Source: Vermamoeba vermiformis
Taxonomy: Eukaryota
DNA: 37,306 nt
Assembly (NCBI GenBank): GCA_045837725.1
Contig: JBEWZL010000124.1
Coordinates: forward strand, 620,001 to 657,306
Reading direction: 5' to 3'
Shown here: positions 10,450 to 37,306 of the stretch, piece by piece
Layout of the letters: every line of letters begins with the position of its first letter
How positions within the stretch are numbered: position 1 is the first letter of the stretch
Position numbers and translations under genes: made by a program
The notes under the pieces: model-generated
What the model was told of the DNA's origin: nothing
The model's input: the letters and a program-made list of their open reading frames with translations, nothing else
Databases searched by the model: none

Positions 10450-13281
10450 ATGCGCACGTCCTTATTAGCTACGATTTGTGTAATCAGCTGCGTGCTCTTG
10501 TGTCAACAATTCTCGGCGGTTAATGCACAGACAGCGGCAGATCTGCCCTTCTTGCGCGAACAATCTATTCGTGCTATATTATCCAGCGTTGGTTCCGCCT
10601 ATCAGATCAAGTTAATTCAAAATACACTCCAATCTGACGGATCTTTCAGTGATATCAATTACGTTTGTAAGTATATTAATTTTTTTAGCATTCAATCGTA
10701 ACATAATGGTTTACAATTATATTTATTAATTTAATCCAATAATTATCGGATTTGATTCGATTTTTTAGTCCAAAGCCTAAAATGGAAACCAAGATTCCCA
10801 TTTCTTATCATTACTAGCTAATTCCGAATGCGCACAACATAAATCAGCCTTCCTTCTTACAATCCTAGAATGCGGATGATTGATTACGTTTCAACAGCAC
10901 AGGATCGAGTCGCTTGGCCTGCTGCGGATCACTGGCAGCGCTTGATGTACATGGCTGAGGCTTATAGTCTTAACACATCTACGTGGTACCAGAGCAGTGG
11001 CATGAAAGCGAACTTCTCAAAGGCTTTAGACTATTGGTTCTCTGGCTCATTCGTTAACACGAATCCAAACTGGTGGTTCAATCAGATTGGTACGAAGAAG
11101 TCTCCTAATAAAGACTATTACTCATATAAATCCCCACAGGTATTCCAACTACTGCAGGACCTGCGTGTTTGCTGATGCGCAACGACATCACTCAAACTCA
11201 GCGTCAGAACTGCTTGGTCATTGGTGCGCGAGCCAATTGGACGGATTGGACGGGTCAGAATGTCATGTGGCAAGCTGAGGCTCGATTGTTCTTCGCGCTC
11301 ATGACTGATGACTTCGATCTGGTGATGGCATGCGTCGAGGCCATTAAGAGCGTGCTTGTCATCACTCCTGGTCTCGAAGAAGGCATCAAAGTGGTACGTA
11401 TATAGATAATGCCAGCCACATGCTTGGCTAATAATACGCACTCAAAGGACGGTGCTTTCTTGCAACACGGACCTCAGATCTACAACGGAGGTTACGGCAC
11501 TGCTTTGACGAGTGACATTTTGAACAACGTCATTCCTACGCTGAGTGGCACTGCTTTTGATCTTTCGGGCTCGAGCATCGAAGCGTTTGCAAAGGTGTTT
11601 CTCGACGGCCACCAATGGATGATCAACACTTTCGGCTCTAAAAACACGTGGCACACCATCCCTCTCGGAAGGTACGAACTTGTAGCCTATGCACTCAACT
11701 ATTAACACTTCTATTTAGACAAATCTCGCGCTACAACGGAGTGACTGCCAGCATGCCTCCAATAAACTACGTGCGATTGGTCACGGGTTCACGTTCGTCG
11801 GAGTGGGTAGCATTCGCCGATAGATTCCAACGTGTCAACAACACTGCACCTTTAGTTGGTAACAAAGCCTATTGGACTGCTGACTACGCCATTCACAATC
11901 GCGAGAGTTACTCGATTGGTGTCAGAATGTACTCAAAGCGCACTTACAATGCCGAGTGTGTCAACGAAGAAGGCAAGAAATCTATGAAACTTTCTGACGG
12001 TTCAATGTTCATCTACACGGGAGGCCTCGAGTACACTAATATCTACGGTGCATTTGATTGGGAGAAAATCCCCGGCATTACTTCCGAAGTCAATTCGATT
12101 CCGTTCATTTGTAACAGCACTTCAAACAACATTCAGGTTCGAAACAGCAAAATTACTTTTGCCGGAACTGTCAGCAACGGCAATTACGGTCTCAGCGGCT
12201 ATTCGTATTTGCCTCCTCCAAGCTTGTCGAGCACCCTTAAATTCAAGGTACAGCCCTGATTCATAATGTTATTGTATTAACTCCCGTTAGAAATCGTGGT
12301 TCTACTTTGACAACGAGATCGTTGTGCTTGCAAGTGGAATTTCAACGAACAGCTCCTATCAGGTCCTCACAACACTCGATCAGCGTCGCGTCAACGGTCC
12401 AATATACACGTCAAGCTCGTCAACTCCGCTAGTCAAAGGCTTGCACGATTTCACCAGCGATTGGTGGATCCATCATGACAGCGTTGGCTACGTGTTGCCT
12501 GAGATCAAGAACGGCAGAAAGGACTTGACATTGCACGTGGAGAATGTCAACAAGACTGGCAGCTGGTCAGCCATCAATAGTAGGTGTATTCATTCTTCAT
12601 GGCTAGCTCGTACTAACGATTCATAGTTGACGGTACTGCCAACGACAATGTTGAGCTCTTTACTACCTGGATTGAAGGCCAATCTCCGAATGCACAAGAC
12701 GATTACCATCAACTGATCGTGTTGCCTGGTGTGTCGTACTCTGATTTCCCAGCGAGACGCGATAGTGCCGTGAACGACATTCAAATCCTGTCCAATACAC
12801 CTCAGCTCCAAGCAGTCTATCACAAGTCACTCAACATTCTGTCCGGCTCTTTCTTCTTCGCTGGCAACGTCAGTGCTAATGACTGGACCGTGACAGTCGA
12901 TGCCCCGTGTTTGGTGATGCTTTCTGCGAGCTCTAACGGCTTGTCTCTTTCCGTTGCGGATCCTACTCAGAACTTGACCTCAGTCACGATCTACATCGAC
13001 TCCAATCAAGCCTTGCAATGCAATGGTTGCACTACAAATGGCTCAACAACTTCGTTGACTGTAACTCTTCCTTCCGGCGATTATGCTGGCAGCAGTGCTC
13101 TCGTTAGCTTGCAATCAGTTGGGTAAGTTCGAGCCATATTAATACTAGTTTTCTCATTTATTACAGCAACAATGGTGGCCAACCAACTACCGGATCTGTT
13201 CCTGGACAAGTGTCATCTTCTGCGGAAAGTTGCACATTATTGGTCAGCCTTGTAGCATTAATCATTAGTTTGTATATTTAA
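10450..13281 (+). CDS. Polysaccharide lyase family 8 (chondroitin AC/hyaluronate/xanthan lyase-like), signal peptide plus GPI-type C-terminus, ~7 introns
   Basis: N-terminal signal peptide; NWWFNQIGIP, WTGQN, DGAFLQHGPQIYNGGYG (catalytic His/Tyr region), GRQISR, ECVNEEGKK, FDWEKIPGIT, KSWFYFDNEIVVLASGI and TTLDQ. The last exon (13167-13281) encodes NNGGQPTTGSVPGQVSSSAESCTLLVSLVALIISLYI*. Confidence 0.9.
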
Positions 13282-13532
13282 TTTTAGAGCTCTAACAATT
13301 AAACGAGCATAGCTCATAGATTCTCTTCACACAATTAGGCCTAAACAGACATAACGTTATACACGACCTTTCGTCTTAAGGTATGTACCATTAATAAAGT
13401 TATCAATAAATCAAGTGGCACACAGGTTCAAAGATGGGTCCGGACTTTTGGACACGATTCGCGTCCGGTCCTCTGAAAAACCCCATTTAAATTTTTAATT
13501 TAATTTATTTCAAGGCATTACTAACACTACTA

Positions 13533-14804
13533 ATGGCAGCAATGACTCATAGATTTATTATTGCTTCATTAGTGCTTGTTTTGGCTATTTTAACTCTCCC
13601 GAGCCGCCAGCACGGATTTGACACTTCGGGATTGGAGCGCCTTTCTTTCAGCCCAAATGGTACTATTCTCCTGCCCAACGGCGAAGAGTTTCGCGCAGGA
13701 GGATGGAATTGGGGTCACTGGACGTTGACTCAGTATGGAGACGCGGAACTCAACGTTGCTGAAGGCGCGAATATTGTGCGAATTATCCCTCGCTGGTGGG
13801 GCCTCTACAGCGACCCGACAATCGATGCCTACGCTGACGGCGCTGAAGGACATTTTAATACTACAAACATTGACCGCTTGGACAAATTAATAGCTTCTGC
13901 GGTTCAAGCCGGATTGTGGATCAACTTGGCTTTAGACTCCAACTGCGGTCAAAATGGTGCTCAAGATCCAGATACAGAGGTTTATTGCACGGTGGATGGC
14001 CAGCCAGCGCAGAACTTTTTCAACAATCTCGGCATGCGCACCAAATTCAAAGAGGCGTGGACCTACCTTGTCAACCGTTACAAGAACACCACGCGCATCG
14101 CATGGTATGAAATCATGCCTGAACCTAGTCCCCCCGGCTACACTGACGCGGACGTGAAGAGTTTTTACGCCGATATGATTCCTGTATTGCGAGCAGCGGA
14201 CCCGATCACGCCAATTCTCATCGGTCCAAATAACGCTTATTTTGCGAACAAAATCGCCACCGTTTACGATGCCAGTTTCACGAACGTAGTCTACACGGCC
14301 GATTTCCTCGCTCCTGTGGTGCTCAACACGACCAAGATGCAATCAAAAGTTGACTTTTTGACCTCGCTCAGGAGCACGGCAGGTGTGCCAGTGTTCGTCC
14401 AACAATTTGGCATTACAATCGATCAAGACCCTACTGGCGAGCTACTCGATGCAGGAATGCAGTTGTTGATCGACAATCATATTGGCTTTACTGGTTGGGA
14501 GTACCGTGGTCCTACATACCCCGAGTACAGCGTGTGGTACCAGAACAAGACGGATTGGGTGCTCAAAGAACTGCCGTACGATATCTACAAGAGCAAATTC
14601 GCACAATGGAACTCTCCGTTAGGCACAAACTCCGCGCCAAGCAGTGCACCTTCATCGCTTGCACCTAGCACTGCTCCGAGCACTTCACCCTCGGAGACAC
14701 CGAGTGCGGCCGTTGCTCCATCTCAATCTACCAAGTCTAGCGCTCATCGTTACCTTCCTTCAGTATTGTTAGCTTCGATTGTAGTCGTTGGTCTATTAAA
14801 CTAA
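13533..14804 (+). CDS. GH5 (cellulase-family) TIM-barrel protein, intronless, signal peptide, Ser/Pro/Thr linker, hydrophobic GPI-type tail; catalytic residues atypical
   Basis: 423-aa ORF with GANIVRI, LDKLIASAVQAGLWINL, AWTYLVNRYKN, IAWYEIMPEP, LRAADPITPILIG, PVFVQQFG and IGFTGWEY in GH5 strand order. The C-terminal PS/PT-rich linker is followed by LLASIVVVGLLN*. Confidence 0.82.
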   Translation: MAAMTHRFIIASLVLVLAILTLPSRQHGFDTSGLERLSFSPNGTILLPNGEEFRAGGWNWGHWTLTQYGDAELNVAEGANIVRIIPRWWGLYSDPTIDAYADGAEGHFNTTNIDRLDKLIASAVQAGLWINLALDSNCGQNGAQDPDTEVYCTVDGQPAQNFFNNLGMRTKFKEAWTYLVNRYKNTTRIAWYEIMPEPSPPGYTDADVKSFYADMIPVLRAADPITPILIGPNNAYFANKIATVYDASFTNVVYTADFLAPVVLNTTKMQSKVDFLTSLRSTAGVPVFVQQFGITIDQDPTGELLDAGMQLLIDNHIGFTGWEYRGPTYPEYSVWYQNKTDWVLKELPYDIYKSKFAQWNSPLGTNSAPSSAPSSLAPSTAPSTSPSETPSAAVAPSQSTKSSAHRYLPSVLLASIVVVGLLN

Positions 14805-17741: not shown

Positions 17742-19383
17742 ATGGAACATCAAATCGTAACATCTTTATCCGAGCTCTCCGGCATTCCCGTTGAGGTGCT
17801 TTGTAAGTTTAATTTTCAACTGCAGGCAAGTCGCTAACGTTTTTAGATCAATTTTTCCAAGATCGATACATATCCATCACAGAGGAATTATTGACGGATC
17901 AGAGATTGCTCAACAAGCTACTGGATGTAAGATTCGATCGAAGATCAAAATCAATTCTTTACTAAATTTTGATTAGGATAAAGACCTTATAATGAACCGA
18001 CTACAAAAGACTATTAGTGAAAGAGAAGCCGACAAAAACTTCACCAAGAGCCTCAACAACCTCGATCGAGAAAATCGCTATTCCGTTGATAGGAGAAAAA
18101 AACGCCATGGTTCACCTACGAAATGAATATAAGAACCCCACTATCATATCCAAGATTGAGGAATTTGAGCATCAAGGTTTCAGCCAATTTCGCTCGATCC
18201 GTGGGGACGGAAATTGTTTTTACCGTTCTGTTGCCACTGGCTTGATCGAGTGCATCATCAAAAACGAAGAGCTTTACGAGCATATATTTGCCGTATTGCA
18301 GCACCAAAAAGAAGGTCTTGACGAAGAGACTTACGGACATCTGCTGGAATTTATGGCAGTAGTCAACGATATTCATCACCCTCAGCACAAAGAAGAGCCG
18401 AATCTCGACGCTACGGATTCTTATAGTGCAAGCAATGGATCGCTTCCAGAGAGAAGTATATCTGATGCCCTTCCTCCGAGTGACAGAAGCGTCAATTGTT
18501 TCCAAGTGCCGGATTCGAGAGACAGCGGCGAAGAAGAATCTCTCGTGGAGTCTCATCGCGATGAAGATTCCATGGTTATTGTGGACGACAAAGATGATGA
18601 ACGAGAGCCGCTTATACCCAAAGCGACGAGGATCAGGAAGACTTGTTGCACGAGGATAGAATGGTGCACGATGCTGCTCCTGTTGAACTCAACTACGATA
18701 GTGATCGTCGTGTTCCAAGCGAACTTCCACCAACTTCATCAGTCAACGATTGGACATTGATTAACCCAGATCTGACGAAGGCAACTAATAACAGCCACGT
18801 GTTGAACGGCACTCAAGAAACTTCGCCGTTGTCCCGCGAAACTGAAACCAACGAGATACCTTTGCCAGCCGTGCAAATCAATGGTGATGCAGCCCAAGAA
18901 ACTCGAGAAGATGATCGTGTTGCGGTGCGAGATGAGCCTGAACAACGTGCAGACCAAGTAGTGGCGCACGAGGATTTGACGAAAAAGGAAGTGCCCAAAA
19001 GCGAGCCAGCTGTTCCTGTCGCCAAAATAGACATCGATGAATTGTCCGAGAAGTACGCAACTGATATAGAATTGAGCCAATGGTTTGTCAAAGCGTTCAG
19101 ACAACTCTCCGCTTTCGCCCTGCAACGCGACCCAACTTTTTCTTATTACCTTTCGGAGGGTCAAACTATTGATTCCTTGTGCGAAACAGCGTTGAAAATG
19201 GGCGAGGACGCGGAGCAGTTGCAAATGATTGCGTTATTTTCAATTTTAAAGATCGGTTGTCAAGCTTTTCAACTAGACCGAGAAAATAACAACGCATCGT
19301 ACATCTTACCTGATGAATCGGCCACACCACTCATCTACTTGTTGTTCCGTCCAGGGCACTACGATCTTCTCTACAAAGCCTAA
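17742..19383 (+). CDS. Otubain-like (peptidase C65) deubiquitinase with long acidic insertion; two apparent frameshifts (assembly error or pseudogene)
   Basis: PLIGEK...RSIRGDGNCFYRS (catalytic Asp/Cys) lies in ORF 18017-18760. AEQLQMIAL...LLFRPGHYDLLY (catalytic His) lies in ORF 18643-19383. Upstream exons are 17742-17802, 17848-17926 and 17977 onward. Frame changes near 18020-18083 and 18601-18640 have no plausible intron. Confidence 0.78.
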
Positions 19384-26865: not shown

Positions 26866-27180
26866 GGACAACACCAGAGGACGTTACCTCCAAGGCGACA
26901 ACATTGGAGGTCGTTACCTTCAAGGTGAAGACATTTAAAGTCAGGCAGGTTGTTACCTTCAAGGCGACAACGTCAGAGGTCGTTACCCTCAAGGCGACAA
27001 CGTCCATCGTCAGGGAGTTTGTTACCTTCAAGGCGACAACGTGAGAGGTCGTTACCCTCAAGTCGACGACATCCAAAGTCAGGGAGGTCGTTACCTTCAA
27101 GGTGACAACGTCAGAGGTTGTTACCTTCAAGGCGACAACGTCAGAGGTCGTTACCCTCAAGGCGACAATGTCCAAAGTCA
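26866..27180. repeat. Tandem satellite of 30-bp units (some 42-bp variants) with an imperfect palindromic core
   Basis: About 9 copies of GAGGTCGTTACC(T/C)TCAAGGCGACAACGTCA, some with an extra TCCAAAGTCAGG. The core GTTGTTACCTT-C-AAGG(T/C)GACAAC is self-complementary. Confidence 0.9.
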
Positions 27181-27204
27181 GGTTAGGGTTTAGGGTTAGG
27201 GTTA
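27181..27204 (+). repeat. Short interstitial telomeric tract (TTAGGG/TTTAGGG)
   Basis: GGTTAGGGTTTAGGGTTAGGGTTA directly after the satellite. The G-rich strand is +, so it points rightwards as a chromosome end would. Confidence 0.8.
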
Positions 27205-29106
27205 TACGATGGGCATGAAACGCTCAGGATTGATGCGAAAACCATGCCCAAAAAATCGTGGTAAAAAATCGAAGCAAAATAGCCAAAAAAGAACATGAAC
27301 ATTGATTTTTGAAGAATTTACGATAGGAACAGATAGATCAAACAGAGATCTATCTATTGAAGGTAGGGTCGCTATATTACTCGATGAGGTAAGGTAGTTA
27401 TCGCTATAATCCCACGCGGGCACAACCATGCCCAAGATCGCGAATTTTGCCTGATTAATTTTGATTGATTTAATTTTGATAAATTTCGTTACTAGGTGCC
27501 AACTAACAATGCGTGGAGTGGTTGGTTTTTTTTTCGAAAGCGTTGGTGGTCACAGAACGTCGCGCAGATCTGACAACTCGGATTGGGTCAGCTTTGGAGA
27601 AATTAATGGCAATAAATGGCTTAATAACGCGTAAGTACAAGTAATTAATTGATATTTTATTTTTGCTCGCGGTTCTAAGTCCGATCTAGAAGTTCGAACG
27701 GATTTAAATCCGCGAGAAGTGCTTAATCAGCAATAATTATAGTCAATAACGATTTGCAATAATATAATAACAATCCCTATTCAATATCACGTCATTTGTT
27801 CGTTATTTACGGTCGCTGTCATTGATCGAAATTCTCGATCTTGACTGTCATTTTTTTATCGCGACCAGACGAACGACCACAAAGGTCTTTTATTTATTTT
27901 TTGATTATTTAGATAATAACAACACGCGCCCAACGATATTCAGCGTCGTTGCATAATAGAATGAAAGAAGAAAAGGAGAAAGGAGAATGAAATTTCATTG
28001 TGATGAAGGAATCAATGTTAGTTAACTGGTATGTGAATGCTTTAAGATGATAGAAGCATGAAGGGTATCATGCTTCATACAATCAGATCGGTCGCGGAGT
28101 TATTAGACGAATGACCGAAGACAAATGAACGGTAAGTAGAAGCATACTATTATTTTAATATCATTAAATTATCTAATTTGGTTTATTTAAGTCTCACAAC
28201 TTGGCGATGACTGATCGATCTTCTCGCGGAATAAAGTTCGTTCACACGGGTATTGAGCGAAGGTAAACACATCAATAATATTTCACTGATGGTTATTAAC
28301 GTGTTATATTATTAGATTTAATTAAAACGATCTTTTTATGAAGTCGAGGAACGAGATCTCTCGATCCGCGAAACTAAGTGGAGGGGTCGATGGAATAGTA
28401 AGTGGTCCCTTAATTATATATTAATTAGTTAATTTAAGCTAATTTGTTAGTACAAGGGCCGATGAAAATTTAATGAACCGCTGACGCGCGATCTGGTGTC
28501 TCTATCCGTCATCGTCCTCACGAGTAACGCTATTAAGGTTTAAACAATCACCGTAAGTGCACTAAGGGGAATGTTAGTCGAAACGTACTAATAGTTTTTT
28601 TTACAGTTTCAGCGTGTCCTTTCTGATTTTACGAATTCGGTGCACGCATGATCTGACAGCCCTCAAATCTCGGAGTTATACGAAGATGGTAGGACGTAAG
28701 AGCATATATTGGTTTAACGATACAATTACTAATATTCTTTACTAATAGACGGCATGAAATAATCCAAATAATTGAACCGCAACTGAGCTCCAACATTCGC
28801 AATCTTTCCGTGACTGGCTGGTTTCCGTTATGCAAGTACTTTCGTACTATTTAATATATATTTGATATTAACCCTTTATTCAGGCTAGGTAAAAGCACGA
28901 GAAAGGATATCGATCTTCACTCCTACTTGATAGCGTAAGTTCGCTGCATCAACGAGTGTTAATAGGTTGATACTAATAAATTATTAATTCAGAGAGTAAA
29001 AGAAATCTTATTATTTTTGCCGCAGTAAGTACGTAAATGTCTTTATAATATATTTACTAACACGAGATAATTAGAGAAGGGTTTAGCGTTGAATTCCGCG
29101 TTACAG
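27205..29106 (+). ncRNA. Putative spliced, hairpin-rich non-coding transcript or non-autonomous element (copy 1)
   Basis: Eight intron-like segments of 50-60 nt (28132-28191, 28263-28315, 28398-28450, 28553-28606, ~28689-28748, GC-AG 28832-28883, 28935-28992, 29025-29074) with donor, branch-like and acceptor signals. The joined exons give no long ORF. Many stem-loops; paralogous to 35200-36650. Confidence 0.5.
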
Positions 29107-30855
29107 TCACGAGTTTGACAGGCACTCCATATACAGGCCACTCCATCTCGTTCTCTACACATGACAGCGGCAAGCAAAGGTTATTTTCCTTTGGATGTAC
29201 TTCACCGATCGAGTCACTCACTCTTCGCTGCAGAAAGAAGTCCCCGAGTACATGCCGCCCACCTTGTCGCAGCACCAGTGGCGAGTGCTGAGATGGAGTA
29301 TGAAATGAGTTCTCCTGACAGCGATCAGCAACCAGATTACAGCGAGCCATTCATTCAGCTCCGCGAGAAGTCAAAGGTAAGTTCGGATCTAGATTGAGTG
29401 TCGTTTGTGCTCACCAGTGCGGTAAATTAGAGGAGCCTATTGAATGCACAGCCCCGTGGAGAAGAAGCGCAAGTAGGATCTGATCCAAGAGTCGCCAGAG
29501 AGGGCAGGCTTCGATCACGTAGTCCCAGGTTCGCTGGATGTGTCGTGCGCGCCAAAGGGCTACTTGCAGTACAGCGACATACGCCTCAAGACTAACACCG
29601 AGGACATTATGGACGCCCTCGATATTGTGACTCGTCTGCAAGGCAGGTGCTACCAGGGGAAAGACGAGCTGGTGGCAAATGAACTCGGAGGATGCAAAGT
29701 GATTGGTCTGACCACATCAAGTGCGTCGTGTGCTGCCTGAAGTGAGGACTGCAATGGCTATCTCTTGGTTGATTACGCAGACCTGGGGCCGATCTTGGTG
29801 GAGGGTCTGAAGCAACACTTGAAGAACTAGTTCTCGAGAGCGACAAGAGCGAGATGAAGGAACAGATCAGCAAACTGCACAGCAACATTAAGTCTTGAAG
29901 CACAAGAGCGACAGCGAGACGCGCAAGATGAGTCACGAGCTGGAACCGCTCAAGTTCAGCAACAACAACATCTTGGACTCTTCTTGCACCAGTCACCTCC
30001 TATCGACACACTCCCAGCGCACCTTTCGCGCTCAGTCACGAACACGAACTCATGCTCGCAGCACTGCAGAACATTTTTTGGCTACGGCGTGACAGTCACG
30101 TGCTTGGCAGGCTACGGCGATCACGTGATCGATCTGTACGATGCCGCGGTGGACAATCTGCAACACAGTCACCTGTTGCACGTGCTGCACATGGACAAAA
30201 AGTACCGCAGTCAGTTCGATCCCAACATCACCTGGAAGCCGACCAACTTCATAGAAGAGATGATCTTGTTCGCGCTGCTGCTCAAGAACTTGCACGAGGA
30301 CGCAGATCTGCTACTTTGTAACCCCCAACGCCCTGAAGTGATCTACTAAATGCCCAAGAACTTCTTCAAGTACCTCTTGCACCACAAGCTGCATCAAGTG
30401 CTATTTGGACATGACGGACTCGCAGCACTCACCAACTTCAGCACCTTCTTTGTCTACGGGCTTGCCACTATCGCTCATGTCTCCCTGGGGCTACAAGTTC
30501 TATCGTGCTTGCGTGCAGTTGCGCCAAGCCTTCGAAGTGCACCGCACCATCACAGCGTGTCCTAAAGTCTATCGCGTGGGACTCCTCCACACCTGCACCG
30601 CTCTTGCAGCACACGGTGTTCGACACGGACACACATACCCTGCTGCAAAAACTGTGCGTGTTTGAACAACAAGTGCGTTGCGTGCCCATCCAGTACAAAG
30701 AGGCATTTACTACTGCCTACAGTGCATTCAAGTATTGGAAGCCGAGCAACAGTTGCGAGGAGGCTATTCAAAAGGCACTTAAGAACGACCTCACGTTCCG
30801 GAACGTCAACATAGCTGTTAATATCAACTTGACGAAGTCGAATCCGGAGATCTAG
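29107..30855 (+). pseudogene. Pseudogene of a peptidase S74 (intramolecular chaperone autocleavage, MYRF/MrfA-ICA-like) domain protein
   Basis: KGYLQYSDIRLKTNTEDIMDALDIVTRLQGRCY...KVIGL, then after frameshifts RRVLPEV...VDYADL..ILVEGLKQ. The SDxRLK motif and following helices typify S74/ICA. Multiple frameshifts and in-frame stops; GC-richer than the flanks. Confidence 0.78.
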
Positions 30856-31525
30856 CGCGAGCCTTTTATTAATGCCTGATAAGTAATACCTGTAAGTAAT
30901 ACAAAACTATTATTCGCGTATTCTAATCTAATATATTAAATCAAAGCTGCTGAATTAGGCGACATTATGGAGAAATCGGTTTGCCGCAACTTTAATACTG
31001 GATTTGCAAGGTGAAAACCAAGTTGGCAGCATGAAAATGGTTTGATCAGCGTTTTTATTTATTTCTATTCGTTTACTAACACGGTTTTATTAATAGATTC
31101 CAGGAATATTTGTTTACGTCGCCGATCCTCGCGCAATGCTTTGATACGCGACACCTCAATCCTATTCCTTGCCTACAGAGTGTTGTGTGCCCACACCCTC
31201 ACTCACCTTGGATAAAGCTGTTCTGTTGCTCAAATACAATATGAATAATAAAAACTAATGCAAAGTTTTCAACAATGAAGGTGTATTTGCAATAAGTAAA
31301 ATGTGTTTGAATTTTCTAACAAGCAGCTTTGTCTTATTCAGGCTGCATGTGGTAAGTTAAGTCTATTTTGAGCACTCTAAATCACATTACTCATCCTACA
31401 AAGGTGCATGTTGCATATTTCTTAATGATATCTAAATCAACTAACCTGGGATATGGTGCTTGCACTGGTTTGAGTGGTAATAGAATCTGTTTGTATTTAG
31501 TTTGTGATATCCTTGTAATTGGAGA

Positions 31526-31766
31526 CTACTTTGGAATCAATGTTTGATCAATAATCATAGCGAATAGGAAGCTCCCACACGGTGATAGAATCCATTCGTA
31601 TTTGGTACATGATGTCCTTGCTATTAGTTATATATGCTGCATCAATAAGACCCCTTGATCTGCTCAAGTCTCTGACAGCCAAAATCCTGTCTCAGAATTT
31701 GCCCAAGTTCTCACCAGACCTGGATATCAGCTTCTTCAGCTCAGAATCAGCTCATACTTGGATCAT
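31526..31766 (-). pseudogene. Decayed ORF fragment of unknown origin
   Basis: MIQV*ADSELKKLISRSGENLGKF*DRILAVRDLSRSRGLIDAAYITNSKDIMYQIRMDSITVWELPIRYDYDQTLIPK*. Both internal stops are TGA (possible CGA>TGA) in a CpG-poor stretch. Confidence 0.35.
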
Positions 31767-31953
31767 AGTATATTCATATGAATTGTTATTGATCCATACC
31801 ATATTTGCAAAGATGGCATATTAATATAGCTTTAAGGTTTGGGGGTGAGAGGGTTAAAAATAAAATATTGTAAAAAGTAGCTACAAAGTTTCTATAGCTG
31901 TTTTTTTAATGTCATATGATAGGCGTACGAAAATATGATGATATTATATAGCC

Positions 31954-31977
31954 TTTTAGGGCTTAGGGGTCTTAGGG
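31954..31977 (+). repeat. Degenerate telomere-like tract
   Basis: TTTTAGGG-CTTAGGGG-TCTTAGGG, in the same orientation as 27181-27204. Confidence 0.45.
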
Positions 31978-32039
31978 CAAATAAAAAAATCCAGATACCC
32001 TTAGATTTTGCTTTATTTATGCAGCTACAACCCAGCTGC

Positions 32040-32696
32040 TAGGCATGACCAATAGGTTACAGGGAGGGCCATAGGCAGAAGCGTGACCAGCAGGTCACAG
32101 GGGTAGAGACTAGGTGTGACCAGCTGGTCACTAGGACATGGAGCGTGACCAGAGGGTCATAGGCGCAGAGACTGAGTCACAGGGGCCATAGACAGAAGTG
32201 TGACCAGCTGGTCACAGGAGAAAGAGCGTGATCGGCTGGTCACAGGGAAGAGCGTGACCAGCTGGTTGCGGGACAGAGAACGTGACCAGCTGGGACAGAG
32301 AGCGTGGCTGGTCACAAGGGGCAGACAGTGTGACCAGCTGGGACAGAGAGCGTGACCAGCTGGTCACAGGAGAAAGAGTGTGACCAGCTGGTCGTGGACA
32401 GAGAGCGTGACCGGCTGGTCACAAGGGGCAGGCAGTGTGATCAGCTGGTTGCGGACAGAGAGCGTGACCGGCTGGTTGCGGGACAGAGAGTGTGACCGGC
32501 TGGTCACAGGGAAAGAGCGTGACCGGCTGGTCACAGGGAGACAGGGAGAGCGTGTGACCGGCTGGTCACAGGGAGAGAGCGTGACCGGCTGGTCACAGGC
32601 AAGAGAGCGTGACCGGCTGGTCACAGGCAAGAGAGTGTGACCAGCTGGTCACAGGGAGAGCACGTGACCGGCTGCTGGTCACAGGCAAGAGCGCGA
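32040..32696. repeat. Tandem satellite (~27-30 bp) with palindromic core GTGACC(A/G)GCTGGTCAC, left part
   Basis: Roughly 20 copies of GAGAGCGTGACCGGCTGGTCACAGG. TGTGACCAGCTGGTCACA is a perfect 18-bp palindrome. Confidence 0.92.
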
Positions 32697-33951
32697 CACT
32701 ACAATTTCTAAAGGGGCAAATCACACCCGTGATTCTCATCTCTCATCTCGTCGGATCTCATGTGATGAAAAATGGCCACACCGTGATTTTTATCTCGCCG
32801 TGAACAAATCAACAACGCACGCATTTTTAATAGGTCACTTATTAATACAAAAGAAAATGATAATAATGAACAGCATAAGTGGTGTAAATAAATATTTATT
32901 AAACAAATACCTTCAAGAGTTGTTCTGGCAAAGTTAACTACGGACTTTAGTTCGTTCAAATATTGGTCATCAGTGGCACGGAGCTTCGGCATTAAGTGGC
33001 ACTAAATATCTCTATAAATATATTAGTTAAATGCATCTTGGCTTGTGTTACAATTAATTGTAAAAATTACATACGTGGATGAGTTAAAACTTTGATCCAC
33101 TGCCAGAATGAAATTTCACTCGTTAAGTCGCCTGCAGCACAGCGACTTAACTGCAAAGAGATTTCTTGCTGGTCGCGTATCTGGAAGACTAATTAGTTTG
33201 AGTATTTATATATTAATATGCACTCTTAATACTATAATTACCTTGATTAAATGCTCCTCAATACATTAAAAGTATAATCCGAAACGGATTAAATCCTAAA
33301 TTAATTTTTAAAAATTAATATTTAATGCTATTACTTATGTAATGATATTATTATTAATGTACTAAATATTTTGTGGCATTTAACCCAAAAACCTACCCAC
33401 ATCTGAGATGTTCCATCCGAATTACAAGTGAAGATAATTTGGCATTACGGAAGTGCTGTAGTTATCTATTTATATTGTAAGCACTAGCTAATTGTTAACA
33501 ATTACTCACCGTTTGTGTTAAACATACGTGCCACAGCAGCGATTTGATATTTTGTTTTCGTTTTCATTTTTTAACTTCTTCCTCAAAATATTAGCATGCT
33601 ACATTCGCTGTCGCTGTTCCTGCAGGCGTGCAATTGCGACATTTTATGAGGCTGTCTTGTCTGCGATCACTAGCAACACCGTTTTACTTCACCCCCCATG
33701 GCTTTGCTCTCTTTGACCTTCCACGGTCGAATGGAAGGCTCAACCTTTGAACGGTAGACTTCGTGGTGCTTTTGCTTTGTCATTCGTATGTACCTTTCAT
33801 TAAATTGTCATTCTCTGCATAGAACCAGATGCTTATTAATATCACTAGTGACAAAAATCACACCGTGGAGCTAAATCTCGCGTGATCTCCCACTGAGATC
33901 TCGGTGAGAGGCAAATATCGCCGAGATTGGCAGTTGTTAGTTTTTGTAGTG
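32697..33951. mobile_element. Non-autonomous CACTA/EnSpm (CMC superfamily)-type DNA transposon, 1255 bp
   Basis: Left end CACTACAATTTCTAA; right end TTAGTTTTTGTAGTG (reverse complement CACTACAAAAACTAA). Subterminal CACACCGTG/ATCTCG repeats at both ends. It interrupts one satellite unit with a 2-bp GA duplication (gagcgcGA|...|GAccggtcaca). The interior holds only decayed minus-strand exon/intron fragments. Confidence 0.82.
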
Positions 33952-34030
33952 GACCGGTCACAGGGAGAGCGCGTGACCGGCCGGTCACAGACAGAGAGTG
34001 TGACTGGTCACAGGGAGAGCATGACTCCTG
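33952..34030. repeat. Right-hand continuation of the GTGACC(A/G)GCTGGTCAC satellite
   Basis: GACCGGTCACAGGGAGAGCGCGTGACCGGCCGGTCACAGACAGAGAGTGTGACTGGTCACAGG resumes immediately after the CACTA right end. Confidence 0.88.
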
Positions 34031-34760
34031 GACACTGGGCAGGTGAGTGTTAGATCGAGTTAAAAAAAGCACACCGAACCTGACTTACCTTAGGCAGACC
34101 AATATAAGCCCATGGGACGTGTGGTGTTTATAAAGAGGCCAGCTGCAGCAGTGCGTGCACTGGCATCAAAGTGATGAGGTTGTGTTGGACTTGACGTGTC
34201 ATGAAACGCTGCACACAACGGGTCAGATTCGTGATCGAGGTTAAAATCTACCTGACTTACCTCACGCAGGTTGCTCACTATCCAGCAGTCCTGTTGAAGC
34301 TCGCAGAACGTGTGGCACTTATAAGGAGGCAAGCTACACTACACAAACGATAAAAATTAGATGCCGCGCATCTAAAGTTCCAGATTTAAAAATTCTTTTA
34401 CTTACCAAATGTCAGGTACTTGTTGGCTAGCACCCTATAAGCATGTGTCTTTGCATTGTGCCGCAGAGACATTTTGAATTAAGTCCTACGCAGCAGTGAG
34501 CGCGGAGAACAACAACGCGTGACCACGATCTGATGAAAATCTAAATTAAATATTATTAAGATAAATTCTGCTCCGAGTTATTAATGAGGGAAAACTCACC
34601 GCAGTGCACTACGCACTGTACGAGCATAAGTTAGTGGAGCAGACAGCCGATCAGCTCCCGGAACCTTGGTGTTGTTAATATTAATTCAAAACGCAACACA
34701 GCTGCTTTCGTTGGACCAAGAAAATAATAAAATTAATTCCACGACCATTGTGGTGTGGTG
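34031..34760 (-). other. Minus-strand series of short exon-like blocks with splice donors, partly internally duplicated, no ORF
   Basis: Donor-like GTAAGT/GTGAGT on the minus strand at ~34088, ~34259, ~34405 and ~34599. Block GATCGAG..TTAAAA..ACCTGACTTACCT is duplicated (34052-34091, 34233-34262). Confidence 0.35.
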
Positions 34761-34930
34761 CTCGTAGTTAGTGGGTTAGTTATGAAAGCAGTGCGGAGCT
34801 AAAATTGTCAGCCGTGCCAGGATTTATCCCAGCACAGAACAATTTTTTGGCAGCACGTGCAGTCGACACACGTCGGTTTTCTAAATCAGGAAGTGACCGT
34901 TACGCAGATTAAGCATTGTTTAAATACTTG

Positions 34931-35350
34931 GACAGATCGACCACTAGGGTTATTTATTTTTACAGCTTAAAGTAACGCGCCGCGGCACCAGAGCCGTTTC
35001 AGCGCGAGATATTTCGGATCTGAGCTGATGCGAAAATGGCACACGGGCTATTTCGCATCAACAATTCAACAGATCGACCACAAGGGTCGATATATTTATT
35101 ATTTAATGATTAATAACAGCAGATAGTGCCGCGCCACGGTCAACACGGCCGTTCAGCGCGAGTTATTTCGAAGATTGACAGTAGCGAATCTCGGATTCGC
35201 AACAGATCGGCCACAAGGGTCGATTTGTTTATTTAGATGGCTTATTTTTTATTCATACACACGCGCCAAACGACAATCAGCGTCGTTCCAGCGCGGCTTT
35301 AAGATCGCGATCAAAACGCGATCAAATCTCGGTGCAGTGACCGAGATAAT
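34931..35350 (+). repeat. Three diverged ~135-bp structured tandem units
   Basis: Units start ACAGATCG(A/G)CCAC(A/T)AGGGT at 34932, 35069 and 35202. Each has an AT-rich linker, then CGCGC-[inner hairpin]-CAGCGCG, then a further hairpin. Confidence 0.75.
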
Positions 35351-36530
35351 TTAAGGTAATAATTTTTTTAATATCCTTTCACCATGTATATTATTTTAAC
35401 ATCGTAAATTCAATTTCTAAATTTTGGAACCAAAATCAATCAGATCCGGATCGAGCTTCGTGCTCGGATTTTATCTGGATTTTTAACTTATATTTATCAA
35501 ATTATACTAAATACAATATTCTAACGCGTAATTTTTTTATTTAGATTATTGTTACGGTTTTTTAGCGCGATCGAAAGTTCCAGTCACTTTCGATGCGCGA
35601 GATCCAGACCACCAATGGTCGTTTCACGGTATACTGGCTTTTTCCGTTCGTGTCCCGCTGTAGGGATGGTCGCCACTGCTCGGTGACGGATTCGGTAACT
35701 TGATGCCAAGATCGGATGCGTTGGACGCATCGAAATATTCCGTAAGTTATTTTTCAATAATAAAAACATTCAATTAGACGCAGGGAACGCGTCATTTTAA
35801 AATTTAAAATTACTCTTAAATAATTACGAGATACGAATCGAGCTTCGTGCTCGTTTAAAATATAAATTACTGTTTATTTTATTATTAACATAATATATTA
35901 ATCATTATTTAATAGTAATTTGAACATCAGAACTTTGGTGCGAGTTTTAGATCGAGCGCGAAACCGATCTCTCGATTCCCAATAATGAAGCAACCGTAAG
36001 TAGTTTAAATCGTTTATTTTATTATTGTTTAATAGTCTAAAGCGTTTTATTTAGGCGGTACAAGTTACTCAACACGGATCTAGATCGTCGACTTCGCGCG
36101 TTGAAAAATCCTGGTTAAAGTCAAAGATATCGAAGGTAAGCACATAATCACGATTAACAAGCCAAGTACTAACGCGTTATATTAATAGGAATACTCACAC
36201 GAACGATCGAGCCCGATGAAGCTGATCGAGAAGTACCGGGCTCGATCCGCTAAATTTTACTTGGCGGGACCATTAAACGCATAAGAGTAAGTTATTTACA
36301 TTTTATAACACATCGAATAATTAATCTAATATCTTTTTATTGTTTAGGTGGCCCGACGCGTTGATCCAGGACTTGGCGATCTTGGATGTCGAACAAAGTA
36401 CGGATGCGGCTAACAGGTAAGTTAATTTACACTTTTCCAATTAATATTACCAATTATTAACTCCTTAATATCACTAGTGTTAATGCGTGATTGAGTTCAT
36501 CGTAGATCCCCGCGGGGCCCAAATAAAAAT
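35351..36530 (+). ncRNA. Putative spliced, hairpin-rich non-coding transcript (copy 2)
   Basis: Introns at 35742-35777, 35996-36054, 36136-36188, 36287-36347 and 36417-36477; AATAAA at 36522. Exons carry perfect stems (e.g. GATCGAGCCCG...CGGGCTCGATC, 36205-36247). Intron positions and flanks match copy 1. Confidence 0.5.
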
Positions 36531-36674
36531 GAATGAAATGATGAGGATAACAGAATGAAATTTCATTGTTAATTCTTAATCAATGAATGTTAATTGGTAA
36601 ACGAATGCTTTAAATGAACGGAAGAATGAAGGATGTCATTCTTCATCATTGGTACAGTAATCAATGTAAAGTAA

Positions 36675-37306
36675 CAGCAACACGTGCTTTAAATCCGGGA
36701 TAGTCGCGCTAACGCGCGTAAATCCCGTCATTTTCGAGTAAAAAAGAGCATAAAGAACGCGATTTGGATCTAGTCGCGCTCCGCGCGCGTTCTTTCTGGG
36801 GATCAATCCCCGCAGGGGGTAAGTTAAGAAGAAAATCAGTGAATTATTTGATGATGATGATGATGATCATCATTACGATGGTATCCATGCTGGTTCTCTG
36901 GTACACGTACGCTTTAAGCTTGGGATAATCGCGCTAACGCGCGTAAATCCCATCATTTTCACGCGTAAAGAAGAGCATAAAGAATGCTGTTTGAATCTAA
37001 TTGCGCTCCGCGCACGTTCTTGCTGGGGATCAATCCCCGCAGGGGGGTAGATTTGAAAAATTGATGAAAATTGAAATAATTTGATTGTGATGATGATGAT
37101 GATGATGACAATGATGGTGATGATGACATCATTATTGCAATGGTATCCATGTTGGTTCTCTGGTAAACGAATGCTTTAAGTACGGGATAGTCGCGCTGAC
37201 GCGCGTAAATCCCCTCTTTTTACGCTTAAAAAAGAGCAAAAAGAACGTCATTTGGATCTAATAGCGCTCCGCGCGCGCTCTTTTCCGGGGATCAATCCCC
37301 GCAGGG
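36675..37306 (+). repeat. Tandem structured repeat, period 225-262 bp, at least 2.6 copies, runs off the window
   Basis: GGGAT starts at 36697, 36922 and 37184. Each unit reads GCTTTAA - GGGATA(G/A)TCGCGCT(A/G)ACGCGCGTAAATCCC - AAAGAAC...TTCTT stem - GGGGATCAATCCCCGCAGGG - variable (TGA)n - ATGGTATCCATG(C/T)TGGTTCTCTGGTA. Confidence 0.9.

Follow-up and report, generated by a model that had tools for sequence, protein, structure and literature searches.

Two diverged, intron-dense units without a supported reading frame in subtelomere-like DNA of Vermamoeba vermiformis

The two units and their shared modules

The rightmost 10 kb of a 37,306-nucleotide (nt) stretch of Vermamoeba vermiformis DNA (contig JBEWZL010000124.1, positions 620,001 to 657,306; hereafter the window, meaning the whole stretch analysed) contain two plus-strand units, unit 1 (27205-31950) and unit 2 (from 34928 onwards), which an initial annotation, made from the sequence alone, had described as paralogous non-coding regions built from three modules, a, b and c. 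A blastn comparison of copy 1 with the window bore out this description with three matches, all above chance: module a at 27871-27953 and 35205-35290 (75% of 87 positions, E 7e-9), module b at 27960-28078 and 36528-36646 (75% of 122, E 4e-16), and module c at 28128-28448 and 35992-36335 (60% of 350, E 4e-10). All three were likewise picked up by the repeat finder (families D10, D13 and D19), and module c was aligned with MAFFT. No copy of a, b or c was found in the first 27.4 kb of the window. Past module c, no similarity between copies 1 and 2 was detected, only these three patches being common to both, and the flanks at 27205-27870 and 31100-32050 gave no match near copy 2. The sample studied comprises two copies each of c and b and four of a. 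These alignments confirm that the two regions are paralogues, old and diverged; the family has further members, as RNA reads of 90-95% likeness differ from both copies in their spacers and in the start of exon 2.

Copy 1 of module a (27871-27953), as delimited by blastn and alignments, consists of a GACC-N5-GGTC hairpin, an AT-rich spacer and a CGCGCC core with an inner hairpin, and is shortened where module b starts. The match proposed for this module is real, with the correction that in copy 2 (34928-35355, plus strand) module a is present three times in tandem, as the repeats R1, R2 and R3 of 137, 133 and ~158 nt recognised by alignment, folding and CpG content; R3 runs to the donor at 35355/35356. 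The common architecture of an a unit is a GACC-N5-GGTC palindrome, an AT-rich spacer of ~38 nt (20 nt in R1) that ends in an acceptor-like tract, and a small inner hairpin enclosed by an outer stem, CGCGCC...CAGCGCG; one or two additional hairpins, unrelated in sequence, are also present. All four units fold better than their shuffles (z -4.0 for R1, -3.4 for R2, -6.0 for R3 and -3.0 for copy 1). The observed/expected CpG ratio is 1.78 in the tandem a units and 1.63-1.78 across these exons, compared with 1.12 elsewhere. The GACC...GGTC motif matches the window seven times, and six of these matches are in or beside the two units, among them one in exon 2 of unit 2 (35609) and an inverted one at 34743-34753.

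Module b is related to the satellite that closes the window. This satellite (36650-37306) is composed of at least 2.6 units of 227-262 nt (repeat families D8, D9, D11, D12 and D17; alignment A5), with an (ATG)n tract, three internal palindromes and a fold z of -3.0; the right end of the window falls inside it. Module b aligns to the (ATG)n - TGGTA...GCTTTAA portion of the satellite, and its segment 27995-28046 also matches the satellite units at 36867-36918 and 37129-37180 by blastn. On the plus strand, copy 2 of module b (36528-36646) is the degenerate first unit of the array, and copy 1 (27960-28078, fold z -2.6) is a solo piece of the same satellite family, with a 14-nt palindrome and a 9-bp terminal hairpin. 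The sequence ATCCCCGCGGGG, which precedes module b in copy 2, looks like the end of a satellite unit, and the array would thus effectively begin near 36505. The module order a-b-c in copy 1 and a-c-b in copy 2 is as the initial annotation stated; its reading as a shuffling of RNA modules does not follow, because a satellite fragment that heads the array in copy 2 and stands alone between a and c in copy 1 needs no cause at the RNA level.

The palindrome AATGAAATTTCATT reported for module b has exact matches at 27986 and 36554; a third copy, at 33107 within a 1.1-kb repeat described below, differs from it at one position. Its chance expectation is 0.04 matches, and three were reached in none of 100 shuffles. 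The 9-bp stems described at 28053-28076 and 36621-36644 are likewise present, with one change per arm and the pairing kept; both copies of the stem are fully paired although the sequence around them has diverged by 25%, and a double change is found in one of the nine pairs.

Introns and splice signals

Based on alignment A1, copy 1 of module c (28079-28450, plus strand) contains three short exons and the introns 28132-28191, 28263-28315 and 28398-28450, while copy 2 (35916-36347) contains the exons 35916-35995, 36055-36135 and 36189-36286 and the introns 35996-36054, 36136-36188 and 36287-36347. The three shared intron positions and the flanks quoted for them in the initial annotation were reproduced by MAFFT. 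The paired introns measure 60 and 59, 53 and 53, and 53 and 61 nt, and all three donor pairs are kept. The introns are 63.5% identical between copies, with three gap columns, and the exons 54.1%, with 33; taken alone, the homologous exons score barely above shuffles (z 2.2-2.7).

Downstream of module c, unit 1 continues with five further predicted short exons and introns (28451-29074), recognised by donor, branch and acceptor signals and by GTAAGT sites. The introns predicted there lie at 28553-28606, 28689-28748, 28832-28883, 28935-28992 and 29025-29074; this part has no counterpart in copy 2 and no similarity elsewhere. The predicted 3' part of the unit (30811-31350), read from the sequence and from an intron scan, would include introns at 30892-30946 and 31040-31106 and an AATAAA at ~31246. 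In unit 2, intron 1 (35356-35544) is 189 nt long and is supported by RNA reads of paralogues. It is followed by exon 2 (35545-35741), with predicted hairpins of three kinds (a 13-bp hairpin holding an ATG, a GACC...GGTC hairpin and a GATGCGT hairpin) and paralogue reads from 35597, and by a predicted intron 2 of 174 nt (35742-35915). Splice signals and sequence place the last predicted exons at 36348-36527, with an AATAAA at 36522 and a predicted intron at 36417-36477.

Both long introns of unit 2 contain a 25-nt CpG hairpin island (35442-35466 and 35829-35853; repeat family D20). The islands are 92% identical (pair z 6.9) and look as if they were skipped or lost micro-exons. In exon 2, the 13-bp hairpin at 35568-35601 encloses the first ATG. 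One expressed paralogue differs by 1 nt immediately 3' of this ATG, which indicates that the short open reading frame (ORF) there is not conserved.

The hexamer GTAAGT is enriched in the window, with 47 occurrences compared with 16.2 +/- 4.6 expected, a number reached by none of 100 shuffles. On the plus strand, six lie in 28132-29382 and five in 35742-36819, stretches in which the minus strand has none and for each of which the shuffle mean predicts ~0.3. Downstream of each donor lie a CTAAY-like branch word and a YAG, at a distance of 50-61 nt except in introns 1 and 2 of copy 2, where it is 189 and 174 nt. The G+C content of the predicted exons is 44-49%, compared with 24-26% in the introns. 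Because the shared donors, together with good signals at the other eight predicted introns, survive such divergence, we infer from the alignments that splicing, rather than exon sequence, is under selection.

Several other origins of this arrangement were considered. Folding of 12 introns of 50-61 nt gave z values between -2.0 and +1.9, i.e., the introns are unstructured; a mirtron cluster was rejected, with minimum free energies of 0 to -8.5 kcal/mol and an end-to-end hairpin in none of the 12. Repeat-induced point mutation as the source of exon divergence is unsupported, the ratio of transitions to transversions being 66:93 in module c and 52:39 between the pseudogene and the reads of its parent (see below). 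Derivation of all exons from one repeat unit is not supported either; pair scores are non-significant except for R1-R2-R3 and the two intron islands, with z above 3 in seven of 171 pairs.

Hairpins and base pairing

Perfect, GC-containing hairpins of at least 6 bp were counted in copy 2 (34925-36650) and compared with order-3 Markov simulations. Copy 2 contains 13 such hairpins, compared with 3.41 +/- 1.92 in the simulated sequences, none of which (0/500) reached this number. Seven of the 13 are bracketed by ATC...GAT, where 0.43 are expected (0/500 as high) and where none of the 53 hairpins in the other 27 kb has this bracket. All of the copy-2 hairpins are located in a units or predicted exons and none in introns, and the words AGCGCG, CGCGAG, GCGATC and AGATCG are enriched 10-26 times.

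The initial annotation had proposed structured RNA with compensatory changes. In the four-copy alignment of the a core, 90.5% of the cells are paired, compared with at most 44% when the partner is slid, and the inner helix is paired in all four copies (100% of cells). All three one-sided changes in this inner helix give G-U on the plus strand (one at pair 11-27 and two at pair 15-23). A change on both sides is found in one of 11 pairs of the core, and the observed score was reached by 77 of 500 shuffles of these four sequences. Pairing is kept in the stems of a and b, and the covariation is minimal, with one double change in each of them. The stems described for a 45-nt block of module c, TCGGTC/GACCGA (28088-28118) and ATCGAG/CTCGAT (35951-35976), do exist; their 3' arms are offset by six columns of the alignment, and comparison with shuffles shows no folding excess for either exon (z -1.15 and -0.38). 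The exon 36189-36286 folds at z -3.2. Outside the a units, 11 of 16 exon or module folds have z above -2, most c exons folding no better than shuffles, and the two homologous c exons that fold significantly pair differently. A comparison of G-T with A-C mismatches in the extended stems, as a test of RNA versus DNA, gave 0 versus 0 and was uninformative.

The initial annotation had assigned the units to no known class; the Rfam scan of the whole window gave no match at gathering scores. With E values up to 5, the region 27500-37306 yielded only mir-9256 (21 bits versus a cut-off of 80) and bxd_1 (16.9 versus 75), both chance matches, at E 2.4 and 4.6. No tRNA was found in the window. Pattern scans of viral contigs for more copies gave two, zero and zero matches, the two being chance matches in which similarity is confined to the pattern. 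Support for a specially folded RNA is thus far thin, and the stems may act in either RNA or DNA.

Coding potential and the S74 gene fragment

The two units look non-coding, as the initial annotation had claimed. Spliced copy 1 has stop codons in every frame. The homologous exons are 71 versus 81 and 82 versus 98 nt long, i.e., they differ by 10 and 16 nt, and the mismatches are spread evenly over the codon positions (37/68, 25/69 and 33/70), without an excess at the third. The codon score of the open frame in copy 2 is 0.063, compared with 0.019 +/- 0.083 for chance open stretches of the region (21 of 80 as high) and 0.152 +/- 0.053 for real genes of the window; 18.6% of the simulated stretches scored as high. 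A 31-amino-acid (aa) exon translation gave no match among 1.84 billion representatives, a weak test with so short a query, and no Pfam match was obtained. A protein-coding gene was rejected as far as testable, since frame, codon-position bias and relatives all fail.

Mobilisation through RNA, which the initial annotation had offered as an alternative, is unsupported. Introns are retained in both copies, and the proposed check for reverse transcriptase or transposase ORFs found no reverse transcriptase, transposase or integrase family among the 110 of 113 ORFs of at least 80 aa that were scanned against Pfam; the three omitted are alternative frames inside the S74 fragment.

This fragment (29086-30810, plus strand) is a decayed, truncated piece of a Peptidase_S74-domain gene (Pfam PF13884, 24.9 bits) with an internal deletion, several frame changes and in-frame stops. 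An intact relative of 1051 aa (P0001) is 80% identical to it over 86 aa, and in a tblastn map the fragment covers only residues ~166-453 and 725-998 of P0001, in shifting frames. The a, b and c exons gave no tblastn match to P0001 even at E 10. A metagenome scan with P0001 identified two contigs, L003 (gene at 1-1830) and L004 (513-2726), which carry the S74 gene without a, b or c; comparable intron density is absent from L003, and on L004 the intact gene has a plain upstream region and no intron where the homology of the window begins. Judging from these comparisons, the S74 fragment is foreign DNA in the predicted unit-1 exon that is delimited by an acceptor at 29074 and a donor at 30892. 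In P0001 itself, the Peptidase_S74 domain occupies residues 325-384, and the big C-terminal part is of unknown family, with a weak, sub-cut-off match to UvrD_C; a protein atlas query with P0001 gave no usable match.

RNA-seq reads

Three RNA-seq runs with the same species label were analysed, of which ~46-48% each was read. The runs placed 221, 210 and 350 reads on the window; by likeness (at least 99%, 95-99% and 90-95%), these divide into 0/18/203, 2/7/201 and 0/17/333. The placed reads derive from relatives and not from the two loci. Over 29.1-31.1 kb the reads are 90-95% alike and carry loose ends of the P0001 type, which indicates that they stem from the parent gene of the S74 fragment; the intact relative is expressed in all three runs. 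The bins 31097-32077 have no reads in any of the three runs. Across 35021-35674 the depth is 0.2-1.2, with paralogue reads on the tandem a units in the bins 35021-35347.

Two reads of run X11 join 35355 to 35560, with 15 other letters replacing the 15 nt of the window at 35545-35559. This is the predicted junction of exons 1 and 2, and the reads thus represent a paralogue transcript that lacks the intron 35356-35544. A join of 35346 to 35597 was found in all three runs (one, three and five reads), with 12 other letters ending in AAG and then ATG. Other reads span the a spacer with 25 or 32 other letters; in one of these, a palindrome of the copy-2 type is connected to a core of the copy-1 type. 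Additional, weakly transcribed members of the family thus exist, and intron 1 is spliced out in them. With regard to the earlier claim that the units are spliced, the short exons and canonical short introns are present and intron 1 is removed in paralogues; the other introns are predicted.

Telomere-like tracts around unit 1

Unit 1 is flanked on either side by telomere-like tracts of one orientation. The left one, ITS-1 (27181-27204, GGTTAGGGTTTAGGGTTAGGGTTA), consists of three TTAGGG/TTTAGGG units with the G-strand on the plus strand and hexamers starting at 27183, 27190 and 27196; its exact TTAGGGTTAGGG occurs once in the window. The right one, ITS-2 (31953-31978), is a degenerate cluster of the same orientation with hexamers at 31956, 31963 and 31972. 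Together they contain six of the seven plus-strand TTAGGG hexamers of the window, and both units run in the direction of the telomeric G-strand. To the right of ITS-2 follow, in order, a 28-nt palindromic satellite, a 1.1-kb repeat, a minus-strand intron-rich unit, unit 2 and the 227-262-nt satellite. In subtelomeres, domains are separated by degenerate telomeric tracts (PMC7374410). The layout matches that described for subtelomeres, and we infer from it that a chromosome end lies nearby and that TTAGGG is the telomere repeat. The subtelomeric context claimed by the initial annotation gains unexpected support from the two tracts, from which the position itself is deduced.

Interpretation

We consider the chances about even that the two units are old paralogues of an ORF-less, intron-dense RNA polymerase II unit that forms a small family in subtelomere-type duplicated DNA. 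To judge from the layout, transcription would start in a module-a unit, composed of the palindrome, the ~38-nt AT-rich spacer and the CGCGCC core. The first exon would fold into short GC-rich hairpins, given its strong predicted folding excess, and the short canonical introns would then be removed, as shown for intron 1 in paralogue transcripts and as presumed for the others, to leave a product without a supported reading frame. The different module orders would have originated at the DNA level, with b as a fragment of the neighbouring satellite, and one exon of copy 1 would have received the rearranged Peptidase_S74 gene fragment. Because the exons are at 54% identity while introns, lengths and splice signals are kept, selection seems to act on transcription, splicing and leader hairpins and not on exon sequence. 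By analogy, this pattern fits a cis-acting or low-information long non-coding RNA (lncRNA) of the chromosome-end kind.

A number of observations weigh against this interpretation. Expression of either locus was not seen, at most two reads per run being at least 99% alike, and depth is 0 over the bins 28154-28807 and 35675-37306 in the three runs. The RNA support is limited to intron 1, via paralogues only, and comes from unstranded libraries. The palindrome itself is present in paralogue reads, which implies that transcription either reads through from a preceding tandem unit or begins at a more distal upstream site. The family analysis draws on four copies of a and on one pair each of b and c, and the hairpin excess is confined to copy 2, copy 1 having four perfect hairpins (2.6 per kb versus a background of 2.0). 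In spliced copy 2, one frame of ~97 codons is interrupted by just one stop (~3% chance per frame), which leaves room for a lost or small coding function of this copy. Finally, the subtelomeric position is deduced from two short internal tracts in a window without a terminal array, and TTAGGG as the telomere repeat of the host is an assumption.

The frame of copy 2, which runs over four exons, would be expected if the units were dead relics of a multi-exon protein-coding gene, i.e., a 5' untranslated region plus small coding exons lying without present function in a chromosome-end graveyard. The neighbouring S74 stretch is clearly part of a pseudogene, the three runs show no expression of the two loci, and the exons are GC-richer than the introns, as in coding genes. 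We regard such an origin as unlikely, given that the exon lengths differ by 10 and 16 nt, that the third-position excess is absent, that the codon score is within the null, and that no relative of the exon translation was found, whereas the parent of the S74 fragment was identified immediately. Furthermore, unconstrained decay should have destroyed the donors, and yet the three shared and the eight other predicted ones are still good at ~40-46% divergence; the hairpin excess of copy 2 would also be left unexplained. The S74 fragment also bears on the proposal that the units are non-autonomous, telomere-associated mobile elements that reach chromosome ends by RNA- or DNA-based copying and capture gene fragments in the process. 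The position of unit 1 exactly between two same-orientation telomere-like tracts and the further members of the family agree with this proposal, but the absence of reverse transcriptase, transposase and integrase families among the scanned ORFs, the introns in both copies, which speak against passage through spliced RNA, and the failure to find terminal repeats or sharp common ends in copies that share three patches only leave it a slim chance.

The two remaining explanations concern the stems. If the hairpins act or arise in DNA, as sites for dimeric proteins or through templated mutation of quasi-palindromes, the RNA would be incidental and the apparently compensatory changes would come from repair. 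Perfect palindromes occur in all repeat families here, including both satellites, and reach 10.8 per kb in 31.1-34.9 kb; the stems share the word GATC, AGCGCG, CGCGAG and AGATCG are among the enriched words, the well-folding homologous c exons pair differently, and the inverted GACC...GGTC element 180 nt upstream of unit 2 heads a minus-strand unit. The one-sided changes of the a helix, in contrast, all give G-U, which is tolerated by RNA and not by a DNA palindrome, although the numbers are tiny; the hairpins are restricted to predicted exons and a units, and RNA of paralogues exists. A DNA-level role or origin is given a low probability. Lower still is the probability that we assign to a structured-RNA family in which the folds of a, b and c are conserved and kept by compensatory evolution. 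The inner helix paired in all four a copies, the b stem that is perfect in both copies and the strong fold z of the a units speak for such a family, but the both-sided changes amount to one of 11 pairs in a and one of nine in b, with a score equalled in 77 of 500 shuffles, 11 of the 16 folds outside the a units have z above -2, and Rfam gave nothing at gathering scores.

Comparison with known systems

Yeast Y' and similar telomere-associated elements are separated by internal telomeric tracts, and unit 1 resembles them in being bounded on both sides by telomere-like tracts of one orientation. It differs in that no helicase or other long ORF is present, and the two units share three patches and no whole element. 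The telomere-specific retrotransposons HeT-A/TART, SART/TRAS, MoTeR and Athena are likewise flanked by telomere repeats in a fixed orientation, as is the case here; unlike them, the present units have no reverse transcriptase, are interrupted by spliceosomal introns throughout, and showed no poly(A) tail or defined ends. Hosts of small nucleolar RNAs (snoRNAs) of the GAS5/UHG type are ORF-less, multi-exon genes in which introns and splice sites are kept better than exons, features that recur here, whereas the introns of the two units are 50-61 nt long and unstructured, and no snoRNA or other Rfam family was found. A snoRNA host gene was rejected on this basis (no Rfam match at gathering scores; 12 unstructured introns).

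The closest analogue is DDX11L. This human family is subtelomeric and multi-copy, lies beside telomeric repeats, is canonically spliced and includes a rearranged gene fragment, with a function that is not established (PMC2705379; PMC7374410). The units described here are similar in being multi-copy in subtelomere-type duplicated DNA beside telomere-like repeats, in their multi-exon structure with predicted canonical splice sites, in having no established protein, and in the rearranged gene portion, which is the S74 fragment of copy 1. The exons of DDX11L derive from its parent gene, whereas the a, b and c exons are unrelated to S74; moreover, within the window a captured fragment is absent from copy 2, expression of the two loci was not seen, and the chromosome-end position is here deduced. 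Since the leader exons do not come from the captured gene, the relationship to DDX11L is one of resemblance and not of membership.

A second parallel is TERRA, which is defined by UUAGGG repeats in the RNA and transcribed from CpG-island tandem-repeat promoters at human subtelomeres (PMC7374410). CpG-rich tandem repeats that point along the telomeric G-strand also lie upstream here, and the product would likewise be a non-coding, putatively RNA polymerase II transcript. In contrast to TERRA, the units are densely spliced, the a repeats share no sequence with the human ones, and module a is a candidate promoter only. It is a rather remote idea that the units are TERRA-like, telomere-directed leader RNAs born from a tandem repeat of ~130-135 nt, the repeat being a CpG-rich exon with an AUC...GAU hairpin plus a short AT-rich intron; the exon-plus-intron lengths are 82-159 nt (mean ~130), and the a units measure 133 and 137 nt. 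If this were true, a processing enzyme or a protein of the chromosome end would dock repeatedly at the bracketed hairpins, and the introns would have been multiplied by tandem duplication inside a non-coding gene.

In many organisms, the duplicated patchworks at chromosome ends yield non-coding or chimeric transcripts and sometimes new genes, and the present locus repeats this theme with short, strongly signalled introns. Its unusual traits are a very high intron density without an ORF, introns that are kept better than exons, and a copy-2 leader full of perfect hairpins bracketed by ATC...GAT; the latter hairpin grammar is the part most worth following. If the units were mapped to chromosome ends and found to be transcribed, they would offer a compact system for selection in spliced lncRNA and for the function of leader hairpins at these ends; otherwise, the locus is well-described subtelomeric debris.

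Neighbouring repeats and genes

The character of the window changes at ~26.4-27.2 kb, where genes stop and are followed by a minisatellite and the short TTAGGG tract of ITS-1. The minisatellite (26867-27168; Tandem Repeats Finder, repeat family D6) has units of 30/69 nt, closes the gene-dense part and directly precedes ITS-1; the minus-strand ORFs across it have no Pfam match. To its right, the window is a mix of satellites, a repeat common to another organism, a gene fragment and the two units.

The 28-nt satellite extends over 32040-32700 and 33940-34020, each unit containing the perfect palindrome TGTGACCAGCTGGTCACA with everted TGACC/GGTCA half-sites, and a short inverted remnant of it lies beyond the adjacent element. 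This element, the ~1.1-kb stretch 32697-33826 that includes the palindrome copy at 33107, recurs at ~99% identity (12 other letters in 954) in contigs of run X3, which bears another organism label, and is probably a shared mobile or repeated element; its ORFs have no Pfam match. On the minus strand, from 34740 down to ~33990, another intron-rich unit is located, which comprises two exon-intron repeats in tandem and has donors at 34405, 34260 and 34088. The inverted GACC...GGTC element stands at its head, so that it is arranged divergently to unit 2; no Pfam match was found among its ORFs.

The window is eukaryotic nuclear DNA and is gene-dense over its first 26 kb. The Pfam families identified there are CLU/eIF3_p135, UBR box, LRR, P-type cation ATPase, family-8 polysaccharide lyase, GH5 cellulase, ZZ/IBR ring-between-ring pieces, otubain, patatin, SAM, and PH with GBP. 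The last Pfam-supported gene ends at ~26.35 kb, and the S74 fragment is the sole Pfam match to the right of it. The otubain gene is found in two overlapping frames, 17996-18757 and 18601-19380, which reflect either an intron or a frame break. At 10843-14801, the family-8 polysaccharide lyase, with three Pfam domains separated by short introns, adjoins the GH5 cellulase among typical eukaryotic genes, and the two may have been acquired from bacteria.

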